Shown here: piece by piece, positions 2,549 through 30,577 of the stretch | How the letters are laid out: each line of letters opens with the position of its first letter | How positions within the stretch are numbered: position 1 is the first letter of the stretch | Source: a phage | Direction: 5' to 3' (one strand) | Sequence record: PZ168832.1 | DNA: 64,000 nt | The notes under the pieces: model-generated | Told to the model about the DNA's origin: nothing | What the model saw: only the letters and a program-made list of their open reading frames with translations | Databases searched by the model: none | Made by a program: the position numbers and the translations under genes

Positions 2549-3733
2549 TTAACGCGCTTTCAAATCACGGTACACGGTCAGATTCTTCTTAGCACGGGTG
2601 ATAGCGGTGTACATCATCTTGGAGTACGGAACGCCGCGCAGGATTTCTTCCAGCACGCACACGTTGTCCCACTCGCTGCCTTGCGATTTGTGGACCGTGA
2701 TTACATAGCCATAGTCCATCCCGCCAACAGCGCGTTGAGCCTCTTTGCGCACTTCCTGATCAGTAGAGAAGGAAAGAGGATTAATCTTAACCTTTATATC
2801 TTTGCCATCGGTAAGCGAGCGCAAATTGACATACATGATTTCATTGGACTCGTCTTCGTCCCTTTCAAAGTCCGGCACTGGCTCATAGCTAATAACAATC
2901 CCTTGCTCGCCATTACAGAATCCTGGGCCGTGTTGGTTGAAGGTGCAAATAACCTTCTCGCCGATTCCTGGCATTGGCGTTATACGTCCGCTCACTTGCC
3001 GTAATAATGAATTCCATTTGTCTTTGGTGCTATTATAGGAGCAAATAATTTGATCATCTTCGCCCATGAATTTCTTCAATGCAGTAACGCGCGGCGATTC
3101 TGCCAACACTTTGACGTCATCATATTCACGCGGAGGAAGGCGGTTGCCTTGGCGCACGAAGAAGGAGGCGCGGATAATGTTGGACTCTTTCCCTTGCCGC
3201 ATGATTTCTGTTAACAGTACGTCAACGGCTTCTTCGGTAAAGTAGGCGGCGGCTTTTACCGGAGGGACTTGTCCAATGTCGCCTAATGCCAGGACAGGGA
3301 TGCGGTGATCAAGAAGGCGCTCTGTGTCCCACTCGCCAACCATCGACGCTTCATCGAGTACAACAAGGTGCGGCCTTTCATCCAGCTTTGACTTTCTCGA
3401 AAAGATTGGCTCATTGTCGTCATTTACGCCGCGCACGTTATAGATGAACTGGTGAAGGGTCTTAGCGCCACGACAGCCTTTTTGCTTTAATCGGCTTGCA
3501 GCCTTTCCGGTCGGCGCAATATAGATAGCGCCGTACTCACCGACACAGCGGCGCACAATCTCGCGAGCAATAGAGGTTTTACCAGTCCCTGCATAGCCAG
3601 CGATGAAAAACACGCGCTTCGTCGTTTTACCGTCCTGCAATCGCTTGTACCATGCAACGGCTTTCTCGATGGCGTCGATTTGTTGCGCGTTAAACTGAAT
3701 CACTGGCTCATCATTAAATTCTGGAATGTTCAT
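2549..3733 (-). CDS. dda: Dda/RecD-like SF1 DNA helicase
   Basis: Walker A GYAGTGKT, DEAS-like LVVLDEASM, C-terminal VITVHKSQGSEWD motif; 394 aa. Confidence 0.8.
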   Translation of the reverse strand: MNIPEFNDEPVIQFNAQQIDAIEKAVAWYKRLQDGKTTKRVFFIAGYAGTGKTSIAREIVRRCVGEYGAIYIAPTGKAASRLKQKGCRGAKTLHQFIYNVRGVNDDNEPIFSRKSKLDERPHLVVLDEASMVGEWDTERLLDHRIPVLALGDIGQVPPVKAAAYFTEEAVDVLLTEIMRQGKESNIIRASFFVRQGNRLPPREYDDVKVLAESPRVTALKKFMGEDDQIICSYNSTKDKWNSLLRQVSGRITPMPGIGEKVICTFNQHGPGFCNGEQGIVISYEPVPDFERDEDESNEIMYVNLRSLTDGKDIKVKINPLSFSTDQEVRKEAQRAVGGMDYGYVITVHKSQGSEWDNVCVLEEILRGVPYSKMMYTAITRAKKNLTVYRDLKAR

Positions 3734-5801: not shown

Positions 5802-6065
5802 ATGGGTGCTTTCCGTAACGAGTTCACCTGGAACGTTACCAGAAATCTCTCGACTTGTCCTAACTGTGCAAGCGATGTTATCAAGGTGCGGCAGCATCGC
5901 AACGCGGAGGAAGGTGCCTGGGAAGATGGCGACCTTGTAGAGTGCCAGTGCTGCTCTCATGAAGGCGTTGTGGAGCTTTACGCTGGCGAAGGTTGCCCAC
6001 CAGCAGAGCGCACAGCACGCGTTGAATGGGATGCAACAGACTCCATTGGTGATCCTCAACAGTAA
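5802..6065 (+). CDS. Cys-rich (zinc-ribbon-like) small protein
   Basis: AGAGGTG RBS then ATG at 5802; CPNC ... CQCCSHEG pattern. Confidence 0.5.
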   Translation: MGAFRNEFTWNVTRNLSTCPNCASDVIKVRQHRNAEEGAWEDGDLVECQCCSHEGVVELYAGEGCPPAERTARVEWDATDSIGDPQQ

Positions 6066-6083
6066 ATTTAGGTATAGATACTT

Positions 6084-6188
6084 ATGAAAGCCGTAAAGAA
6101 ATACACATTAATCATTTCCCTTGTCATCATCCTGGGGCTATTATATGTATTGGATATGGCATATTATTTGGCAGGGGTGAGTGGATGA
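6084..6188 (+). CDS. Small hydrophobic peptide (34 aa)
   Basis: MKAVKKYTLIISLVIILGLLYVLDMAYYLAGVSG; stop overlaps the next ATG (ATGA). Confidence 0.3.
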   Translation: MKAVKKYTLIISLVIILGLLYVLDMAYYLAGVSG

Positions 6189-6475
6189 ATATTGTAATTC
6201 TTTATGGTGAAAATATCAGCGATGACGACATCGAAGTTGCCGTTGATGTTTACGGTATCGATGAGGTGAAACGTGTTGAAGAAATTAGTGGCGCAAATCT
6301 CAATGAGATTGTCAAAGAAGCTGGCTGCCCTTCGGAAGAGATTCTGGTGGTTACTAACGATGACCTGTCTTCTATGGATCATTTGCGCCGCATCTTCACC
6401 GATTGCCAATACCTTCATGCTGTTCAATCAGTAAACAAATTGAGAAAGGCATACGCCAACCAATTTCCTTGCTGA
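6185..6475 (+). CDS. Hypothetical acidic protein
   Basis: 96-aa ORF. Confidence 0.5.
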   Translation: MNIVILYGENISDDDIEVAVDVYGIDEVKRVEEISGANLNEIVKEAGCPSEEILVVTNDDLSSMDHLRRIFTDCQYLHAVQSVNKLRKAYANQFPC

Positions 6476-6611: not shown

Positions 6612-8282
6612 ATGTCAATTGAACATGACAATCTTCCAGAGGATACAGGTGATGAATTTGGTGCAATCTTTGACGAAATTCAAGACGCTGGTGTTTCAGA
6701 AGAAATGCAAGCAGCAGAGCAGCAAGGCACCAGAGCTAAAATAAGCCTTCAGCACAAGGCTGTTGAGAAAGATGCAGAGCGCATGGAATGCTACGGTGAA
6801 GAAGACTTGGTTGAAAGGGCACGTTTGCTCGCCTCACTTCAGGTAATCAAGTTCCCTCACTATAAACCGACGAAAGATGATTTTGTTCTTCAGGCGGACC
6901 GGACGAGTGACATGAACCGTTATGCGGTTTTCGACGCGTTGTTTGATAAGGGAAGCGGCGTTGTTCCATTCCCTCACAAAGATACTTTTCGTGGGCGCTT
7001 AGTCGACCATCGCGGCGAAACATTCACCGACCGGACGTTGGAAGTCACAGAGATAGTTGCCGCTGTCGACGCAGCAGGCCTGTCCAACCCAAACTCACGG
7101 CAGGTCGCTCAATCCTATAAGGAATGGGCCATGCGTTATCAGCGCGACGACCTGATGGACTTCTTCTACAAGAAGCTGCCTGAATGGGACGGTACTGCGC
7201 GCATTGAGAAATACCTTATCGAGCTATTCCGACCGTTCGATACAGAGTTAAACCGACAAATCGGTGTGTATTTTTGGCTATCGCTCTATAACCGCCTGAC
7301 CAACCCTGGCTGTCAAGCGCCAATATCCATTGCGCTCATCGGCGGCCAGAACGCAGGGAAGAGTTATTTTAGTAAGCTGCTTTGCGAAGCTATTATGAAC
7401 GACCGCCACGCAACACCGATTCCGTTGAACTTGGCCGCGCAAAACTTCAACCCGTTCTTGCGAGCTATTACGGGTCGCTCAATTATCGCGAACGTTGGCG
7501 AGATGACAGGCTTTAAAAAGGCCGACATCGAAAACATGAAAGCATTCCTGACTAAGACGGAAGATGACCTGGACTTCAAATTTGAAGACACGCAGGTTAA
7601 ACCACGCCAGTGGATTGCGATCATGGACGGCAACGAATACGCAGGCATGCAGCGTGACGACACGGGCAACCGTCGTGTTTACCCTATCTTTGTTGGCCAA
7701 CTTGCTGACAAGGACGGGCAACCGAACTGGTCTAAAGACTTCCAAGCTGACCTTTCCACTTTGAAAGAAGATGTTTGGCAGCTTATGGCTGAGTGCGCTG
7801 CGTGGATGGAGAAGCACGGCGAAGCAGGTTACAACGCCTTTGTTGGTGAAACGTCTCGTATGCTTACTGAGTTCAGCAAGAATGAAATGGAACGCGCTCG
7901 CGGCGTTATCCGTGATGAGATGGTCGACAACGACCTTGTTGAAGTCGTCATTACTGCGCCTTATGACCGACATCACAGCGGACGCTGGCACATCACCAGT
8001 GGTGCAATCGCTATGGGATTCAGAGCTAAGTGCGGCAAGTCGCCTTTCTCACGTACCCTTGCGCCGCACATGTCGAAACTTGGATTTGAGCCTGCAACCT
8101 ATCGCAACCAGCGTGGTTACTTTACGCCGCTGATTAAGAATGAAGCAGGGGAATACATTTCTGACTTGATGACTATCTTGGCGTATCTTATCCGCGACGA
8201 GTCTGACCCTGAAGATATTGAATTCTTGAAGAAGGTTATTGAACGCAAACGTTCTTTAGGAAGAGATAAGGATGAATTCTGA
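6612..8282 (+). CDS. Primase-associated P-loop helicase (VirE / D5-like, SF3-type)
   Basis: Walker A GGQNAGKSYFSKLL; 556 aa; sits downstream of the Prim-Pol gene, giving a split primase-helicase arrangement. Confidence 0.6.
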   Translation: MSIEHDNLPEDTGDEFGAIFDEIQDAGVSEEMQAAEQQGTRAKISLQHKAVEKDAERMECYGEEDLVERARLLASLQVIKFPHYKPTKDDFVLQADRTSDMNRYAVFDALFDKGSGVVPFPHKDTFRGRLVDHRGETFTDRTLEVTEIVAAVDAAGLSNPNSRQVAQSYKEWAMRYQRDDLMDFFYKKLPEWDGTARIEKYLIELFRPFDTELNRQIGVYFWLSLYNRLTNPGCQAPISIALIGGQNAGKSYFSKLLCEAIMNDRHATPIPLNLAAQNFNPFLRAITGRSIIANVGEMTGFKKADIENMKAFLTKTEDDLDFKFEDTQVKPRQWIAIMDGNEYAGMQRDDTGNRRVYPIFVGQLADKDGQPNWSKDFQADLSTLKEDVWQLMAECAAWMEKHGEAGYNAFVGETSRMLTEFSKNEMERARGVIRDEMVDNDLVEVVITAPYDRHHSGRWHITSGAIAMGFRAKCGKSPFSRTLAPHMSKLGFEPATYRNQRGYFTPLIKNEAGEYISDLMTILAYLIRDESDPEDIEFLKKVIERKRSLGRDKDEF

Positions 8283-8929
8283 TGAATAAAGCAATCAACA
8301 TCGCTAAATTCTTTCAAAATCTCGGTGAACTGAACAAAGAGAGTGACGTTCACGGAGAAGAAATGAACCGGATGATTTCAACCGTGTTGCGTGGTTTTGG
8401 GTACGATAAGGACTCCATCAACTGTAAGCGCACGAAGCTTGTCGATGAGACATACCTTTACTACGTTGAATTGCGCGTAGGGAAAGAGTTGATGATCATC
8501 GACCCTAAATTGGAAGGGGCGCACTGTTTTGGCGCTCACCCTCGTGCGAGTGAATTCAAGGGTCGCGGTCGCAACCGACTCCAGAAGCTTGATGATGCAG
8601 GCGACTTGAACATCTCGATGTTCCTCAAAGAGTTCCTTGCGCTGCCGAAGGTTGCATCCTCAACGGGCCGTGATGACCTGTGCAAGATTGGATTCAGAAC
8701 TAAAGATTTGCGCAATGCGCTACGCAAGAAGGGATTTGTACCTTCTTATGATAACGTCGCCGCGCTGATGGCTTCCATGGAGGAAGCTGAAGCAATGGAT
8801 AAAGTGCGCGGCTATTTCCTGAATACAGGCTACACAATGTATGAGTGGCACACCAAAGGATTGACTGTCGCCGACTTCATCTATTCATTAGAGCAGAAGT
8901 ATGTACGCAATATGCAGGCCACAGGATAA
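8282..8929 (+). CDS. Hypothetical protein
   Basis: 215-aa ORF, start overlaps upstream stop. Confidence 0.55.
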   Translation: MNKAINIAKFFQNLGELNKESDVHGEEMNRMISTVLRGFGYDKDSINCKRTKLVDETYLYYVELRVGKELMIIDPKLEGAHCFGAHPRASEFKGRGRNRLQKLDDAGDLNISMFLKEFLALPKVASSTGRDDLCKIGFRTKDLRNALRKKGFVPSYDNVAALMASMEEAEAMDKVRGYFLNTGYTMYEWHTKGLTVADFIYSLEQKYVRNMQATG

Positions 8930-16499: not shown

Positions 16500-16635
16500 A
16501 AACAGTACACCACGCACCACGGTCCGCAATCCACGCAGCATTATGATTTGTGTACATTTATAGCCATAATGAACATCAATCTGCACTTGAATATAATGTC
16601 CATCCATTGTATAATTCACACTATTAATTTGCACT

Positions 16636-17124
16636 ATGGGATTTTGCACTATGAGTCAAGACTATGTAGCGATGCCTGAAGACTTTGAAGACCCGCGATT
16701 TGCAGAGCACAATCAGGCTTTATTCGATGAGTTCATTGACCTTGTTATTCAGGGCCATGACATGCGCGCAGCTTTTGCACTAGTATTTGGAATGGAAGTT
16801 GCAACGGATAACTACACTGGACAGCGAATCCTTTGCGCGCAACGCAACCCATACTACAAAATGCGCTTCAAAAAGCGTATGGAAGAGATGCCACTCAAGG
16901 ATTTGTGGAGCGTAAAAGGTGCAATTCACAATTTGGTTAAGCTTGTGCGTGATCCAGAAGTCGCGGCGTCAGCCAAGCTTAATGCTATTCGCGAACTGAA
17001 TATCATCTACGGCATCACGATGATTGATGAAAACGGCAATAGTAAAATGGGCCGTTCCATGGACGATTTCTACAAGGATTTTGGAGAGGCAGCCAAAGAA
17101 GGCGAGCAATTCTCCCGCCACTAG
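16636..17124 (+). CDS. Terminase small-subunit-like DNA-binding protein (tentative)
   Basis: N-terminal FDEFIDLVIQGHDMRAAFALVFG and QRNPYYKMR resemble the small-terminase HTH pattern (F..EY..d.n...AA..AGYS ... LL.NP.V), by recall only. Alternative starts at 16651 and 16672. Confidence 0.4.
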   Translation: MGFCTMSQDYVAMPEDFEDPRFAEHNQALFDEFIDLVIQGHDMRAAFALVFGMEVATDNYTGQRILCAQRNPYYKMRFKKRMEEMPLKDLWSVKGAIHNLVKLVRDPEVAASAKLNAIRELNIIYGITMIDENGNSKMGRSMDDFYKDFGEAAKEGEQFSRH

Positions 17125-17552: not shown

Positions 17553-18179
17553 TTAGATAATCTGGAAGGTGTAGGACTTGTTGCCGAACTCGAAGTTCAA
17601 GCGCCCAGCTTCCTTAAGCTTCATGCGGAAGCGAATATGTTTGCTATCCGGTAAGCCCAGCGCGGCGAACGCTACGCGGACCGATTTGAACTCTCCTACA
17701 CCCTCGACCATAACGCCGTTACGGGTAAGACGCTTTTGCGCCACTTCCTTATTATCCCAACTTTTTGCAATGCCTTCGCTATTCGAACGGCGATGGGAAG
17801 GAGTTCCGTTTTGCACTACGCAATTTGCACTATCGTTTAAACCGCTCTTAACGAAGGCTTCATACTCTTCGTCGGTCATCGCGTCGAGTTCTTCCTGCGT
17901 CGGCTCGGCCTTTTTAACGACCGCACGCGCCTTATGCGTTTTTACATCGCTGGACACTTCCTCGCGCGGCTTCGCGTCGGGGATGGGCGATTCGTTGGAC
18001 GGCTCATCGAGCGCGTTTAAGGACTCGATTAACGCGATTACGCGAGTCTCGGCGGTCCGGCGGTCCGAAAACTTCTTAATCGGTTTTGAGCCGGAATTTG
18101 CATTATAGAATGCAACGAGGTCGGCGGTCTTAGTTGCGATAACGTCGCCGCTAGTCGAGAAGCGATTTAAGCTAACCAT
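17553..18179 (-). CDS. Hypothetical protein (208 aa), cassette gene
   Basis: Strong third-position bias with abundant CGC/TCG/GCG/TTA codons unlike the rest of the window; the antisense ORF 17578..18108 is Ser-rich low complexity. Confidence 0.55.
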   Translation of the reverse strand: MVSLNRFSTSGDVIATKTADLVAFYNANSGSKPIKKFSDRRTAETRVIALIESLNALDEPSNESPIPDAKPREEVSSDVKTHKARAVVKKAEPTQEELDAMTDEEYEAFVKSGLNDSANCVVQNGTPSHRRSNSEGIAKSWDNKEVAQKRLTRNGVMVEGVGEFKSVRVAFAALGLPDSKHIRFRMKLKEAGRLNFEFGNKSYTFQII

Positions 18180-20391: not shown

Positions 20392-20772
20392 CTATTCACT
20401 CTTATGGGCATCACCAAAGCCATCCGCAATCTGGCTGATCAGCGATTCAATGGACACAGTTTTACCAATTGATCGAGCGGTAATAGCAAGCATATTATCA
20501 ATCAAACCATGATTGGATGCATATGATCCAGGTTTTGAATCATCTTCAGAACAACCAAAAAGCTGGTCGCGCAGACTTTCAAGAGAACGCTCAATATTTT
20601 CCAACTTCTCTTCTAAATCGGATTGGCGACGTAAAACCCACGTCAAGTCACGGTTGCCAACTTCCAATCCATCAGAATAGCAAGGTGGAGCGTCAATTTT
20701 GATGCTGGAACCAAAAGCAATGCCGCTGCCTTTAGTATATGTGTGACTCATAGAATCATTTTTATTTGACAT
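20392..20772 (-). CDS. Hypothetical protein downstream of the tail fibre (possible fibre assembly factor)
   Basis: AAGGT RBS then ATG at 20772 (track start 20838 is TTG). Confidence 0.45.
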   Translation of the reverse strand: MSNKNDSMSHTYTKGSGIAFGSSIKIDAPPCYSDGLEVGNRDLTWVLRRQSDLEEKLENIERSLESLRDQLFGCSEDDSKPGSYASNHGLIDNMLAITARSIGKTVSIESLISQIADGFGDAHKSE

Positions 20773-20847
20773 ATCGTTACCTTCAATATTTGGGTGATTA
20801 ACAATAAGTATAATAAAGCCGCATAGCGCGGCATTCAAATCGATTTA

Positions 20848-21103: not shown

Positions 21104-21505
21104 TCAATATTTTAATAAGAAAGCGCCCAACCAACTTTCCTCAATCTCGCGGCCAGTAGCCACACGGTCGGTCTTTGCTATGGGTCTGGATTCGCCGCAG
21201 GGTAATCCGTCTTGTAGCTGTGTACTATTGCCAATTCTCACCAAAACCTTTCCATCAGGGTCGATATAAGCGCGACAACCCATGATTTCGAGTCGCTGTA
21301 GACACTGGCGAATCGTTTTCAGCTTCTCACCGGACCGGATAGAGCGTGGTCGCGACCGCGACCGCTGACCGTTCTTATTCACTGTACGCTTGAAAACCGG
21401 AATATCATTGGTGCGTTGTGGCTTGGGTCGGTAGTAGGCTTCTTCACCAGGAGTTGCGCCTGGTGTCAGTTCGCGCTTAAGCGCCTTTTCGATATCGATG
21501 ATCAT
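21104..21505 (-). CDS. Hypothetical basic protein
   Basis: 133-aa ORF, Arg/Lys-rich; no clear RBS. Confidence 0.45.
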   Translation of the reverse strand: MIIDIEKALKRELTPGATPGEEAYYRPKPQRTNDIPVFKRTVNKNGQRSRSRPRSIRSGEKLKTIRQCLQRLEIMGCRAYIDPDGKVLVRIGNSTQLQDGLPCGESRPIAKTDRVATGREIEESWLGAFLLKY

Positions 21506-25269: not shown

Positions 25270-25484
25270 CAGTCTTCACCTTGAGATTCAAGACAAGTAA
25301 GAACAAGCCATGTCATCGGAAGAATCAAAACCAGAGAAATAAGGGACCAGATGGACCAGCACAAGATGACAGACTTGAATGTGTGAACGTCGCCAAACGC
25401 AGCAGTGAAACAAAATCCCATCACGAAAGCAAGCGCGGTGGAGTGGTTATCAATGGCTTTGATGGCACGGTCGATGAGTTTCAT
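25269..25484 (-). CDS. Two-TM small membrane protein (holin-like candidate)
   Basis: GGAGG RBS 5 nt before ATG; two hydrophobic segments TALAFVMGFCFTAAFG and VILCWSIWSLISLVLILPMTWLVLTCL. Confidence 0.45.
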   Translation of the reverse strand: MKLIDRAIKAIDNHSTALAFVMGFCFTAAFGDVHTFKSVILCWSIWSLISLVLILPMTWLVLTCLESQGED

Positions 25485-25573
25485 ATTACCTCCGGTTTTG
25501 AGTTAATATGATTATAACGCAGAGCTTCAGAAAGGCAAACTTTTTGTGAATTTATGCCGTCCATGGCAAATGA

Positions 25574-25804
25574 TTAGTGAGAAGACACGACTAATGTGCC
25601 GCTTCCTTTCGCGAAAATCTCAACACCTGGCGGGATTGTGACCGTGCCAACCACTGCGATTCCGATCAACTTGTCATCGGCTTTTTCTTCGAAACAGATC
25701 TCTGCGGCACCGCCGCGAACTTGAATAAGTGCGCCTGATACGTTTTCAGCAACAGAAAGAACGGAAGTGTAAGATGGAGTGAGTTGAATATTTACTAGGG
25801 CCAT
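25574..25804 (-). CDS. Hypothetical protein
   Basis: AGGAG RBS 7 nt before ATG. Confidence 0.4.
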   Translation of the reverse strand: MALVNIQLTPSYTSVLSVAENVSGALIQVRGGAAEICFEEKADDKLIGIAVVGTVTIPPGVEIFAKGSGTLVVSSH

Positions 25805-25818
25805 GATTTACTCCTGAT

Positions 25819-25845
25819 AAAAAAATGGCCAGAAAGAATCTGGCC
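25819..25845 (-). terminator. Rho-independent terminator on the minus strand, directly upstream of the RBS of 25574..25804
   Basis: On minus strand GGCCAGA-TTCTT-TCTGGCC followed by ATTTTTTT. Confidence 0.4.
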
Positions 25846-25922
25846 GAAAAGATCACCCTTTATCCACTACTAAGCTGGAATCATAATTTTACTTGATATA
25901 GCTGTCGCAAGCAAACTATAAT

Positions 25923-27383
25923 ATGAATAAAATATTAACACATAATTGGAAAGTCATGTACCAGTTGAATCCTGCTTTAAGAGAAGTCTGGAAGACGAAA
26001 GCGCGATACAAAGTAATATACGGCGGTCGTGCATCTTCCAAATCGCATGATGCCGCTGGTTTTGCTATTTATTTGGCGGCAAACTTTAAATTAAAATTCC
26101 TTTGCGTTCGACAATTCCAGAACAAGATTTCTGAATCAGTATATACGCTATTAAAAGACAAAATAGAAATTTCTGATTTCAAAGATGAGTTCAACTTGTT
26201 AAAGAACTCCATTGAACACAAAAGAACAAAATCTGAATTCTTATTTTACGGTATCGCACGCAACGTTGACGAAATCAAATCAACAGAAGGCGTTGATGTT
26301 CTTTGGCTTGAAGAAGCGCACGCACTTACTGAAGAGCAGTGGGACATCATTGAGCCGACAATTCGTAAGGAAGGGTCCGAAATATGGATCATATTTAACC
26401 CTGATGAAGAGGCTGATTTCGTCTACCAGAACTTTGTTATGCGACCGCCTAAAAATGCCATCGTTAAGAAGATTAACTGGCAGGACAATCCATTCTTGTC
26501 GCAAACAATGCTGGACGTTATCGCTGGCATGTATGAGCGCGACCCGAAAAAGGCAGAACACGTTTATGGCGGAGTACCGAAGACAGGCGGCGACAAGTCG
26601 GTCATCAACCGTGCATTCGTCAAGGCCGCACTAAACCTCCACAAACACCCTACGTTGGGATGGAGCTTGTCAGGGTCTAACCGTATAGGCTTTGACGTGG
26701 CAGACGACGGCGACGACTTAAACGCCACAGCATTTGTCACGGGCAACGTATTGCGCGGCATAAAGACATGGGAAGGTCTGGAAGATGAATTGCTTAAGTC
26801 CGCAAGCGGAGTTTGGAAAGATGCATTAACATTCGGCGCATCAATTACCTATGACGCCATCGGTGTTGGTGCATTTGCTGGTTCAAAATTTGATGAGCTT
26901 AATGAGTATGCAATCCATGAAAATCCAACATTCCCAAGAATCGAATTTAATGCGTTCAACGCGCAAGGTGCTGTTGATGATCCTGATGACGTCTTCCTTG
27001 AGTTACCACACGTTGAAATACTCAATAAAGACCATTTCGCAAACATAAAAGCGCAAAAATGGACTGAGATTGCCGAACGATTCAGGAAGACATATGAGTA
27101 TGCAACAGGGCAGGCCGTATACCCGACTGATGAGCTGATTTCCATCGACACAGACGGCATTCCAGAACTTGGGATTCCTGCTTGGTCTGCGGAAGAAATT
27201 GAGACATTTCTTTTTGAGATGTCAGCGCCGCGCAAAGACACGTCTGTGCTTGGTAAGTTTAAAGTTGAATCGAAAAAGGATATGGCAAAGCGTGGAGTCA
27301 AATCGCCTAACAAAGCGGACGCAGCAATCATGGCGTTGATGAAACCAATTGTTGCAGCATCCGGCTTCTTCTCTAACCTTTAA
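25923..27383 (+). CDS. terL: Terminase large subunit
   Basis: P-loop KVIYGGRASSKSH, Walker B-like VDVLWLEEAH, acidic nuclease-type C-terminal half; 486 aa. Confidence 0.85.
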   Translation: MNKILTHNWKVMYQLNPALREVWKTKARYKVIYGGRASSKSHDAAGFAIYLAANFKLKFLCVRQFQNKISESVYTLLKDKIEISDFKDEFNLLKNSIEHKRTKSEFLFYGIARNVDEIKSTEGVDVLWLEEAHALTEEQWDIIEPTIRKEGSEIWIIFNPDEEADFVYQNFVMRPPKNAIVKKINWQDNPFLSQTMLDVIAGMYERDPKKAEHVYGGVPKTGGDKSVINRAFVKAALNLHKHPTLGWSLSGSNRIGFDVADDGDDLNATAFVTGNVLRGIKTWEGLEDELLKSASGVWKDALTFGASITYDAIGVGAFAGSKFDELNEYAIHENPTFPRIEFNAFNAQGAVDDPDDVFLELPHVEILNKDHFANIKAQKWTEIAERFRKTYEYATGQAVYPTDELISIDTDGIPELGIPAWSAEEIETFLFEMSAPRKDTSVLGKFKVESKKDMAKRGVKSPNKADAAIMALMKPIVAASGFFSNL

Positions 27384-27386
27384 CAA

Positions 27387-27626
27387 TTAAAGCATTCCGT
27401 GCTGAAGGTCGAGTTTTCTTGCGGCAAACGACCTGGCACGGAATCGCTTACCCGCCCTTACTGCCTGTCGAATCTTCTTTTGCAAACACTTACGATCAAA
27501 ATCGTTGCGGTCGACGGCTTCGAGTAAATCACGACGCAAAGCACCCAGTGTCGACTTTTCAGAGACTTCAACGCCCAGCGCCGCTGCAACGTCTTTCAAA
27601 ACATCGAGTTCGGTTAAAGTTCTCAT
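27387..27626 (-). CDS. Small basic protein
   Basis: 79 aa; N-terminal TLTELDVLKDVAAALGV looks helix-hairpin-helix / SAP-like; basic C-terminus. Confidence 0.45.
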   Translation of the reverse strand: MRTLTELDVLKDVAAALGVEVSEKSTLGALRRDLLEAVDRNDFDRKCLQKKIRQAVRAGKRFRARSFAARKLDLQHGML

Positions 27627-28039
27627 TTGATAATCCCCTTGATGTCTGATTCTGCCATAAAGATTGGAGTTCCGCCGCCAGGAACAATCGAGCGCGTGAC
27701 TTTATCAAACATATCGTTTTCTTCAACTTGAATACGATAGAATTTATTTTTGGATGAAGATGGGCACAATCCCATAAATTTGCCGATTCCGCGAACGCAT
27801 TCATCTTCAAAGTATACTGTTTCACCTTGAATGGAGTCGATGTTGTCTACTGGATAGACTTTGCGACCCAACAACCACTCATCCAAAGTAGCTTGCAAGA
27901 CGTTTCGCGCATCTAAAATCCACGGGTCAATAATAGCACCTTCATATCGCGCAGCAGTGGCTTTTGCCAGCTCTTCATATTCGCATACGTTTACCACTTC
28001 GCCTTGATGAAGGACGACAAATACAATTGTTGTGCTCAT
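27623..28039 (-). CDS. Hypothetical protein
   Basis: AAAGGAG RBS 6 nt before ATG; 138 aa. Confidence 0.5.
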   Translation of the reverse strand: MSTTIVFVVLHQGEVVNVCEYEELAKATAARYEGAIIDPWILDARNVLQATLDEWLLGRKVYPVDNIDSIQGETVYFEDECVRGIGKFMGLCPSSSKNKFYRIQVEENDMFDKVTRSIVPGGGTPIFMAESDIKGIIK

Positions 28040-28201
28040 TTCAATCTCCTTTCGTTTGGTTAACTAAAATATAACTCAAAATGATACAAAAGCAAAATAT
28101 TTTATGAACTATTTATGATTACTATACATATCATTTGCTTACAAACACATGAATATTTATAATATAGATTGATTCCCTTTCACTGTCAGGTGGCGTTAAC
28201 A

Positions 28202-30577
28202 ATGAAAATTCTTGGCATAAAACTCTGGGAGAAGACGCAACCAGAAGCCGAACCAGCGGAGATGCCGCCAGGCGACCCATTGGCACCGTTTGAACGCCTT
28301 GAAAGGCGCGGCAGCGGTCAACGCTGGGAAAAGACTGAAAGCAATCGACCGACCTTTAAAACGGTTGATGACTTCCCTTTATATGAGCCTGATATTAATG
28401 GCGATGGTGTTGCAATCATAAAAGGTCGTTCAGTCGATTCCGCAACAGTATCCAAAAAGGTTATGGATAATGCCTTAAAGAACATCAGTTCAGAAGGGCA
28501 AGTCAACCCATACACAGTACCTATTCAACTTCAAAACTGGTATTTGTCACAGTCATTTATCGGCTATCAAGCTTGTGCCATCATCGCACAGCATTGGCTG
28601 GTGAACAAGGCTTGCTCTATGGTAGGCCGTGATGCAGTGCGTAAAGGTTGGGAAGTAAAATCAAGCTCTGAATCAGAATTGTCTGTGCAGGCCAGCGAAC
28701 GCTTAAAGCAAATTGATAAAGAATTTAATATCAAAGAGCACTTAGTTGAAGCCGAACGATTCAAAAATATTTTTGGTATCCGCGTCATCATATTTGATGT
28801 GCGTAGCGATGATCCAGAATACTACAGCAAACCTTTTAACATTGATGGTGTGACAAAGGGGTCTTATAAGGGAATCATTCAGGTTGACCCTTATTGGATG
28901 ATGCCATTTTTGACGTCTGAAAACACCGCCGACCCTGCATCACAGCACTTCTATGATCCAGAATACTGGGTGATCAGCGGACAACGTTATCATCGAAGCC
29001 ACCTGATCATTTTGCGAAACGATGAGCCAGCTGATATTCTCAAGCCGACTTATATTTACGGCGGCATCCCTCTGACTCAGCAGATTTATGAACGCATCTA
29101 TGCCGCTGAACGTACCGCTAACGAAGCGCCATTGCTGGCGATGTCCAAGCGTACAACCACGCTGCGGACCGACGTTGACAAGGCGATTGCCAATGAGCGG
29201 TCTTTTGCTGAACGTCTGATGATGTGGATTAAGTACCGCGACAACTATGCAGTCAAAGTGCTTGGTCAAAAAGAAGAGATGGACCAGTTCGACATCAACT
29301 TGTCAGACTTCGACAGCATCATCATGAACCAGTACCAGCTGGTGGCCGCAATCGCAAAAGTTCCGTCGACCAAACTTCTTGGGACTTCGCCAAAAGGCTT
29401 TAACGCCACTGGTGAATTTGAGATGGTCAGCTATCACGAAGAGTTGGAAACGTGCCAGCAGCATGACCTGACAAAAATTCTCGACCGCCATTACAAAATC
29501 CTTCTCAAATCAGAAGGGGTGGAAGTCGACGTTAAGGTTGCATGGGAACCAGTTGGCTCACTTACTGCTACTCAACTTGCAGAAATCAACGACAAGCGAG
29601 CTAACACTGGCAAAACTCTCATTGATGCTGGCGTCATTTCTCCTGATGAAGAGCGCGACCGCATCAAAGACGACAAAAACAGCGGCTACAACCGTCTGCC
29701 GGAAGACGCAGCAGAAGAAACCCCAGGGATGTCTCCAGAGAATATGGCATTGCTTGGCAAGTCTGCTGGTGAAGTCCTGCAAGGTAAGGCCGATATTGAA
29801 CAGGCGAAAGTTGATGTCGTTAAGATGGGCGGCCAGTTCTATAGCGAAACAGGTATTATGCCAGAGGGTGCCGCGCGTGGTGAGTTGGCGGAAAACCCTG
29901 ACAAAGCGCCTGTCGAAATCAACATGGACGATACCGATGATGAATCAAGCCATCAGGTTGATGTCCTAACGCAGTTGAAAGAAGGGCTGGAGGGTATTGC
30001 GGATTACTACCTGAAAGAAGGTCAGGATGTGGATTTTGACCCTCAAAAAGATTCACGGTCGGTGCAACCGTCTACCCTTCCAAGCGTTAAAGGACACGTC
30101 GTCAACTTACGCCACAACGTGGGTAAAATGGACGCAGCATCATTACCTAAGATGAAGTTGCACGGAATGATTCTTGGCATTGAGAATCCGCGAAACAGCA
30201 TTCGTAGAGGAAACAGCCTTGACGGTGAATGGGCCGTGAAGATGCCGCACCACTACGGATTCATCAAGGGCACCAAGGGCGCAGACGGTGATGAAGTCGA
30301 CTGCTTTGTGGGTCCAAATCTGAAGTCGCCGAAAGTCTTTATCGTGAACCAAAACGATAACTACTCTGGCGAGTTTGATGAACACAAGTGTATGCTTGGA
30401 TTCGATTCAGCAGAAGAAGCGAAAGAAGCTTATCAAGCATCATTTGGTAACGGTTGGAACGGATTCGACTCAATCCACGAATTAGATGTGAACTCATTCA
30501 AGGAGTGGTTGAAGGGTGATTGCTCTCAAGCATACGGAGCACTCAATAATCCTACTAATTCACCGAAGCAAGGTTGA
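28202..30577 (+). CDS. Portal protein with an unassigned C-terminal extension (tentative)
   Basis: Position directly after terminase and before a Mu-F-like head morphogenesis gene; AGGTGG RBS then ATG at 28202; about 790 aa, larger than typical portals. Confidence 0.6.
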   Translation: MKILGIKLWEKTQPEAEPAEMPPGDPLAPFERLERRGSGQRWEKTESNRPTFKTVDDFPLYEPDINGDGVAIIKGRSVDSATVSKKVMDNALKNISSEGQVNPYTVPIQLQNWYLSQSFIGYQACAIIAQHWLVNKACSMVGRDAVRKGWEVKSSSESELSVQASERLKQIDKEFNIKEHLVEAERFKNIFGIRVIIFDVRSDDPEYYSKPFNIDGVTKGSYKGIIQVDPYWMMPFLTSENTADPASQHFYDPEYWVISGQRYHRSHLIILRNDEPADILKPTYIYGGIPLTQQIYERIYAAERTANEAPLLAMSKRTTTLRTDVDKAIANERSFAERLMMWIKYRDNYAVKVLGQKEEMDQFDINLSDFDSIIMNQYQLVAAIAKVPSTKLLGTSPKGFNATGEFEMVSYHEELETCQQHDLTKILDRHYKILLKSEGVEVDVKVAWEPVGSLTATQLAEINDKRANTGKTLIDAGVISPDEERDRIKDDKNSGYNRLPEDAAEETPGMSPENMALLGKSAGEVLQGKADIEQAKVDVVKMGGQFYSETGIMPEGAARGELAENPDKAPVEINMDDTDDESSHQVDVLTQLKEGLEGIADYYLKEGQDVDFDPQKDSRSVQPSTLPSVKGHVVNLRHNVGKMDAASLPKMKLHGMILGIENPRNSIRRGNSLDGEWAVKMPHHYGFIKGTKGADGDEVDCFVGPNLKSPKVFIVNQNDNYSGEFDEHKCMLGFDSAEEAKEAYQASFGNGWNGFDSIHELDVNSFKEWLKGDCSQAYGALNNPTNSPKQG

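Follow-up and report, generated by a model that had tools for sequence, protein, structure and literature searches.

The stretch of phage DNA analysed here (sequence record PZ168832.1), which at its full length of 64,000 nucleotides is referred to below as the window, carries at positions 27,387 to 28,039 two leftward genes, orf138 and orf79, placed between the rightward genes for the terminase large subunit (TerL) and the portal protein. The region 25900-30600 matches that of Escherichia phage ECML-117 at 98%, and 29 Wifcevirus-type records align to it at 91-98% identity. By sequence, the window comes from an E. coli myovirus of the genus Wifcevirus, which published work treats as distantly related to Pbunavirus, a genus of Pseudomonas phages (PMC11990801). 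A preliminary description of this DNA had reported two minus-strand genes with good ribosome-binding sites between TerL and portal, and we recovered each of these elements at the positions given there (Table 1). Orf138 leads the predicted leftward operon, and the ATGA overlap between its stop and the start of orf79 suggests that translation of the second gene is coupled to that of the first.

Both open reading frames (ORFs) are present in 29/29 Wifcevirus records, at 94-100% amino acid identity, and are there always annotated as "hypothetical protein". The ratio of nonsynonymous to synonymous substitution rates (dN/dS, Nei-Gojobori method), determined against five relatives over 7-56 synonymous differences, is 0.06-0.08 for orf138 and 0-0.06 for orf79. 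Given their presence in all 29 records, their low dN/dS and the existence of distant homologues that occupy the equivalent site in other genera, orf138 and orf79 are evidently constrained, expressed genes and not chance ORFs.

Table 1. Positions of genes and predicted signals around the orf138-orf79 pair, and of the distant TerS gene, in the window
Feature	Position	Strand	Description
TerS promoter (predicted)	16587-16615	+	TTGAAT-17-TATAAT, just upstream of TerS
TerS	16636-17124	+	162-aa ORF, unannotated, ~9 kb upstream of TerL; matches E217 TerS (PDB 7UXE), E 6e-34
TerL promoter (predicted)	25893-25922	+	TTGATA-18-TATAAT
TerL	25956-27383	+	Terminase large subunit; Pfam Terminase_3, E 3e-37; lone + strand gene
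orf79	27387-27626	-	79 aa, 9 kDa; second gene of the leftward operon; start overlaps orf138 stop by 4 nt (ATGA)
Hairpin in orf79 3' end, at TerL junction	27390-27449		Folding free energy (dG) and z-score: + strand -28.5 kcal/mol, z -3.9; - strand -29.4 kcal/mol, z -2.2
Shine-Dalgarno-like sequence of orf79	27634-27640	-	AAGGGGA, 7 nt upstream of ATG, within orf138 end; annotated as ribosome-binding site in phage Mansfield
orf138	27623-28039	-	138 aa; first gene of the leftward operon
Shine-Dalgarno sequence of orf138	28046-28051	-	AAGGAG, 6 nt upstream of ATG; annotated as ribosome-binding site in phage Mansfield
P_L, predicted sigma-70 promoter of orf138-orf79 operon	28068-28095	-	-35 TTGCTT 28095->28090, 16 nt, -10 TATATT 28073->28068; transcription start expected at ~28061
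AT-rich block flanked by the -35 elements of P_L and P_R	28101-28118		Direct repeat TTTATGA-N4-TTTATGA, copies one helical turn apart
P_R, predicted sigma-70 promoter of portal/morphogenesis operon	28135-28163	+	-35 TTGCTT 28135-28140, 17 nt, -10 TATAAT 28158-28163; transcription start expected at ~28170
Portal with C-terminal InPase domain	28202-30577	+	Phage_portal_3, E 5e-88; InPase, E 3e-46; opens the rightward structural block

Conservation of the leftward block among relatives

To place the pair in its evolutionary context, we compared the locus with those of its relatives. The order TerL(+), leftward block, portal(+) recurs in every relative examined, comprising Wifcevirus, Kylevirus, the metagenomic contigs L006-L008, L014 and L015, and the Pbunavirus phages LBL3 and 14-1. 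The block holds two leftward genes in Wifcevirus, five in Pantoea phage Kyle and 13-14 in LBL3 and 14-1, and in each case the gene that adjoins and diverges from the portal gene is a homologue of orf138. On the metagenomic contigs the order runs from portal(-) through the orf138 homologue, a Trypsin_2 lipoprotein protease, a protein of 73-79 amino acids, zero to three small ORFs and a DUF2786/DUF7168 gene to the convergent TerL. The 73-79-residue proteins of the relatives are homologues of orf79 (pairwise E 6e-11 for Kyle; hidden Markov model (HMM) E 1e-11 to 1e-35); contig L006 carries two tandem paralogues of this family at 6995-7427 (HMM E 2e-34 and 1e-18).

Kyle and contigs L006, L007, L008, L014 and L015 resemble the window in having the orf138 and orf79 homologues in the same order and position, but differ from it in a protease gene between the two, degraded in L014, and in one to three further genes ending in DUF2786/DUF7168. 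Protease and DUF2786 genes are both found in L007, the nearest outgroup, as well as in L008, L006 and Kyle, whereas L012, a divergent Wifcevirus-type genome (85% identity), has the pair only; L015 has the protease, and the contig ends in an ORF of ~250 amino acids at the DUF2786 position. In L014, a 45-residue ORF (3250-3387) combines a lipoprotein signal peptide with the C-terminal tail of the protease, matching residues 172-196 of the L007 protein with 48% identity (E 3e-8); to judge from this fusion, the ORF is an internally deleted remnant, a protease caught mid-deletion. No remnant of either protease or DUF2786 was detectable in the window, and relative to the Kyle and metagenomic blocks the protease and further genes appear to have been deleted cleanly in Wifcevirus, leaving the ATGA overlap.

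Since the nearest outgroups carry more genes, parsimony points to a longer ancestral block from which Wifcevirus lost the protease and DUF2786. The base composition gives no sign of foreign origin either, as the GC contents of the two ORFs, 0.43 and 0.50, lie near the 0.46 of the window. The pair had been described beforehand as a small insertion, an interpretation that the synteny comparison does not bear out: the block is universal in the lineage, the outgroups hold more genes and the composition is native. Neither protein, at the same time, has a known structural role, the other circumstance under which the preliminary description would have given up the insertion. As an account of the architecture and evolution of the locus, we consider reduction of an ancestral block very likely.

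The orf138 family spans the whole group, with vB_Eco4M-7 gp35, KYLE_28, LBL3 gp14 and 14-1 gp17 as orthologues. Orf138 matches KYLE_28 with an E-value of 2e-9 and, by BLASTP, LBL3 gp14 with 1e-10, and the family HMM matches the LBL3 and 14-1 proteins with 2e-38 and 2e-34, respectively; the homologue in L007 is 56% identical. Exhaustive and profile searches added just a handful of members. An exhaustive HMMER search over 1.84 billion representatives returned six matches, including P0014 and P0015, giant leucine-rich-repeat (LRR) or Listeria-Bacteroides-repeat proteins that we judged to be repeat-inflated chance matches, and a search for related loci with a single protein found only close Wifcevirus contigs. 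In L012, orf138 (6001-6417) differs from that of the window with a synonymous divergence (dS) of 1.29 and a nonsynonymous divergence (dN) of 0.107, whereas dS is 0.33-0.58 for orf79, TerL and portal of the same genome; this excess over the flanking genes suggests local allele replacement by recombination.

Predicted transcription signals on either side of the pair

The spacer between orf138 and portal (28040-28201) is 162 bp long with a GC content of 26.5%. The preliminary description had argued that it must hold divergent promoters, and sequence conservation agrees. When 28030-28215 is aligned with the sequences of nine relatives (orf138 identity 24-97%), the spacer proves to be conserved in discrete blocks only. 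The TATAAT and TTG of P_R are invariant in all ten sequences, and the P_L hexamers occur as TTGCTT or TTGACT and as TATATT, TATAAT or TATAGT. Where hexamers vary in relatives, they do so just within promoter-compatible forms (TTGACT or TTGATT, TATAAT or TATAGT). Among five divergent lineages, 20/24 hexamer columns are invariant as against 34/138 in the remaining spacer, a footprint with a Fisher p of 6e-8 that is to be read with the caveat that P_R was taken from the window sequence before alignment and P_L was picked after the alignment had been seen. The lineages across which the two promoters are footprinted have proteins of just 24-56% identity.

Two further lines of evidence come from annotation and from motif counts. 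In GenBank, the LBL3 and 14-1 entries have a sigma-70 promoter annotated where P_R lies, and 11 copies of the pattern TTG[ACT][ACT]T-N15-18-TATA[ATG]T are found in the window where 1.3 are expected; most of them immediately precede genes, TerS, primase and the head protease among them. A generic promoter scan showed no enrichment over shuffled sequences and missed both P_R and the footprinted P_L. Taken as predictions from sequence, divergent promoters in 28040-28201 are well supported.

Between the two -35 elements, the repeat TTTATGA-N4-TTTATGA occurs once in the window, with 0.29 occurrences expected. The repeat keeps its place in every Wifcevirus locus retrieved as well as in L007, where both copies carry an A->T change, and is degenerate in more distant relatives. 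Another conserved block of the spacer, ACAT, lies at 28126-28129. The repeat and the ACAT block may represent UP elements or the binding site of a regulator.

On the far side of the spacer, a TGGC at 28191-28194 is invariant across relatives, and the annotated portal of Kyle starts at the aligned ATGGCG (MAINMK...). On these grounds the Wifcevirus portal may start at GTG 28190 (MALTMK...) instead of ATG 28202. The InPase domain of the portal (PF18823) covers residues about 660-782, and the fusion is also present in L006, L007 and L012.

At the other end of the pair, the stop codons of orf79 and TerL lie 3 nt apart, which leaves no intergenic room for a terminator. A strong hairpin is instead predicted within the 3' end of orf79, and in the leftward (minus-strand) RNA it is followed by CUUUAAUUGUU. 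A simple terminator scan missed this hairpin, an Rfam scan of 25400-28800 gave no match, and the stems are invariant in six Wifcevirus-type genomes, so that covariation is uninformative. We regard the hairpin as a candidate terminator of the leftward operon, possibly also serving as a 3' stabiliser or terminator for the TerL mRNA. In relatives, DUF2786 as the last leftward gene shares 4-12 nt at its 3' end with the 3' end of TerL (L007 8061-8072, L008 8336-8339, L002 7398-7401), which makes convergent transcription with no intergenic terminator a conserved feature of the group.

Upstream of TerL, a second terminator-like hairpin (GGCCAGA...TCTGGCC followed by a T-run) is located on the minus strand at 25827-25845, with the TerL promoter region on one side and, on the other, the start of the 76-residue ORF that precedes TerL on the opposite strand (25574-25804, minus strand). 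This hairpin could stop antisense transcripts crossing TerL. By position and size, the ORF may be the counterpart of vB_Eco4M-7 gp32 and thus a small virion-associated protein; gp32 measures 7.8 kDa and was detected in phage preparations with a high mass spectrometry score of 1002 (PMC7048862).

Predicted structures and properties of the two proteins

The orf138 product is an acidic protein of 15.5 kDa with an isoelectric point (pI) of 4.7. A model built from 11 diverse sequences, with a predicted local distance difference test score (pLDDT) of 83.6, comprises a small beta-beta-alpha-beta unit (residues 4-42) and, at the C-terminus, an SH3-like barrel. The latter, formed by the C-terminal ~80 residues, is a five- to six-stranded barrel similar to the small beta-barrels of Tudor, SAWADEE, Sm, KOW and PsaE proteins, but orf138 has no signature motif. 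Pfam and PHROG scans with both proteins and their family members gave only sub-threshold matches or matches to families of "unknown function", the best being phrog_5124 (1e-4) and phrog_2130 (5e-3). A match of orf138 to CarD_TRCF_RID (PF02559) scored 13.8 bits against a cut-off of 23 and appeared in 1/11 family members; we rejected it as a chance match. Judging by its modelled fold, orf138 is most likely a protein- or nucleic-acid-binding adaptor.

The orf79 product is basic overall, with a pI of 10.3, and its charge is strongly partitioned: residues 1-44 have a pI of 4.5, and residues 45-79, rich in arginine and lysine, a pI of 12.0. Four divergent homologues are partitioned alike, so that across five lineages the N-terminal half has a pI of 4.2-4.7 and the C-terminal half one of 10.4-12. 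In a model with a pLDDT of 76, which was built on a shallow alignment of three near-identical sequences, the protein consists of four helices, with an extended linker between the first and the second.

The preliminary description had presented orf79 as a basic protein with a SAP-like motif. Its basic character is clear, and the resemblance to SAP holds at the level of the modelled fold, although not at that of sequence profiles. The N-terminal half adopts, in the model, a helix-extended-helix fold of about 35 residues, as expected of a SAP domain, and the predicted four-helix protein opens with such a unit as do the N-terminal four-helix SAP bundles of Siz1 and PIAS1 (PF02037). However, the Pfam profiles for SAP, HeH and Rho_N found no match in orf79 or five homologues at E-values up to 10, and the motif lacks the basic DNA-contacting surface of SAP, its helix-extended-helix half being acidic and the positive charge residing in the C-terminal helices. 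Because the SAP-like half is acidic, nucleic-acid binding, if any, would proceed via the Arg/Lys-rich C-terminal helices. With that qualification, the model and charge distribution suggest that the orf79 product most likely binds nucleic acid.

Neither protein appears to belong to the virion. Profiles of the orf138 and orf79 families found no match in the PDB, including the TerS structure 7UXE; given the published cryo-EM structure of the E217 virion (PMC10329688), we take the PDB to include the virion proteins of that phage. The mass spectrometry tables of vB_Eco4M-7 (33 proteins) and ECML-117 (28 proteins) lack gp34/gp35 or their equivalents while listing some non-structural proteins (PMC7048862), although for proteins this small such absence is weak evidence. 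With no match among PDB structures and no entry in the mass spectrometry tables, a structural role for orf138 or orf79 is unlikely.

Further information comes from a synthetic vB_Eco4M-7 in which gp35 carried a C-terminal HiBiT tag. This phage gave 336 plaques against 332 for the untagged phage and was among 13 tagged phages then taken into a luminescence detection assay (PMC11074155). The equal plaque counts indicate that gp35 tolerates a C-terminal extension, and to judge from the ATGA overlap the tag probably also disturbs the start of gp34.

A proposed non-structural operon and its alternatives

We propose, with a probability of roughly 0.6, that orf138 and orf79 form a small leftward non-structural operon, the stripped-down core of an accessory block shared by the Pbunavirus-Kylevirus-Wifcevirus group. 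The closest known system is the block of the PB1-like Pbunavirus phages 14-1, LBL3 and LMA2, which has the same position and orientation, a sigma-70 promoter before portal(+) and, as its first gene, the orf138 homologue LBL3 gp14 or 14-1 gp17. It differs in size, with 13-14 genes against two in Wifcevirus. Termed the early genome region, this block was the source of 38 ORFans that were screened for activity, the active ones being 14-1 gp12, which binds the RNA polymerase (RNAP) alpha subunit and inhibits transcription, and the YfiN-binding peptide YIP (PMC8085984; PMC10914365). In our searches, 14-1 gp12 matches the Pfam family DUF6011.

In the mechanism that we envisage, host sigma-70 RNA polymerase would start at P_L, back-to-back with P_R, and transcribe leftward through orf138 and the translationally coupled orf79, and transcription would end at the hairpin of 27390-27449, against the 3' end of TerL. 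Both products would probably serve in regulation or host takeover within the infected cell and not as parts of the virion. This functional component, in which both proteins have non-structural roles within the cell and orf79 binds nucleic acid, we advance tentatively, at somewhat less than even odds.

Several observations weigh against the proposal. A tblastn search of the window with 14-1 gp04-gp10 and gp12-gp17 gave no relevant match, and hence no gp12 homologue, the 31-residue YIP (gp11) lying outside the query set; conversely, the orf79 family HMM detects no homologue in Pbunavirus. Structural matches to the orf138 barrel are generic (Z <=5.1), with no specific match among them. P_L and P_R belong to the promoter class of structural and packaging genes, which makes promoter type uninformative on timing, and "early" is a term borrowed from Pbunavirus usage. 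We found no Wifcevirus transcriptome in the literature, and the transcription starts given for both promoters are predictions from sequence. Finally, the U-tract after the hairpin at the TerL junction is interrupted and its stems show no covariation.

Among the alternatives, the pair might encode non-virion accessory factors for morphogenesis or packaging, for instance a portal or procapsid chaperone and a DNA-binding packaging helper, co-regulated with portal through the shared divergent promoter region. The position between packaging ATPase and portal does not vary among three genera, P_L and P_R have the -35 element TTGCTT in common and belong to the promoter class of the structural genes, orf79 has a basic tail, and with TerS encoded far away local helpers are conceivable. 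On the other hand, neither fold is linked to known assembly factors, the remaining genes of the block are freely gained and lost as is typical of accessory genes, and the equivalent block of Pbunavirus encodes host-directed proteins (PMC8085984). The C-terminal tag on gp35, moreover, cost no plaques although it probably also affected gp34 (PMC11074155). We consider an assembly role unlikely.

An anti-defence or host-range module seated in a hot spot of accessory genes would account for the variation of block content by lineage, with a protease, DUF2786, a methyltransferase in 14-1 and various ORFans, and for the apparent allele replacement of orf138 in L012; small acidic proteins are also common among anti-defence factors. 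Yet orf138 and orf79 are the conserved and not the variable members of the block, their dN/dS is low and gives no sign of the diversification that anti-defence genes often show, and neither shows homology or a fold match to known anti-defence proteins. This alternative, too, seems improbable to us.

A more specific version of a regulatory role would have orf79 and the coupled acidic orf138 act as a two-protein switch that binds the conserved AT-rich spacer with its TTTATGA-N4-TTTATGA repeat and balances leftward transcription, head-on into TerL, against rightward transcription of portal and the morphogenesis genes. We offer this as speculation that is very unlikely to hold.

Recent insertion of two foreign genes, a moron-like cassette, between formerly adjacent TerL and portal genes is very unlikely. 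The pair does have its own predicted promoter and terminal hairpin and lies on the strand opposite to both neighbours, and many other phages have TerL and portal side by side. A moron or recent horizontal acquisition would, however, be expected to be absent from close relatives and atypical in composition, whereas the pair occurs in all 29 records and the outgroups and its GC content is that of the window. The leftward block is present in every relative examined, always with the orf138 homologue first, the closer outgroups have more genes and not fewer, the L014 protease is seemingly preserved mid-deletion, and the promoter is of a class that recurs elsewhere in the phage.

That one of the two is the missing small terminase subunit, TerS, as the absence of a TerS gene beside TerL and the small, helical and basic nature of orf79 might suggest, is next to impossible, as a true homologue with 41% identity to 14-1 gp76 (over 16654-17091) is present elsewhere in the window (Table 1), the family profiles miss 7UXE and all other TerS structures in the PDB, and orf79 falls far below the 15.5-21.3 kDa tabulated for TerS protomers (PMC9611059). 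The position of this homologue is consistent with the wide separation of TerS and TerL published for this phage group (PMC9611059). It was located via 14-1 gp76; the TerS candidates at 17553-18179, 20392-20838, 21104-21505 and 8282-8929 had no PDB match and were rejected.

Seen as the reduced core of an accessory block, the pair is an ordinary and already annotated feature of a known phage genus, and current understanding is unchallenged. What changes is the view of the locus as an insertion: the apparent split between terminase and portal is the ancestral layout of the whole phage group, here in its most reduced state. Since orf138 and orf79 are the only members of the block kept in every enterobacterial lineage examined, orf138 also in Pbunavirus, they are the first targets for knock-out. 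For a genus that lacks a transcript map, the analysis also supplies coordinates of two predicted divergent promoters and of a hairpin at the convergent junction, and it locates an unannotated TerS. Were the two-protein switch to prove true, the pair would represent a regulator family that is not yet described and is peculiar to these phages, with a possible bearing on the latent period, which for Wifcevirus is reported to be very short. Phages of the genera Wifcevirus and Pbunavirus are in use or under consideration in therapy and diagnostics, so that better annotation of these genomes should have some value.

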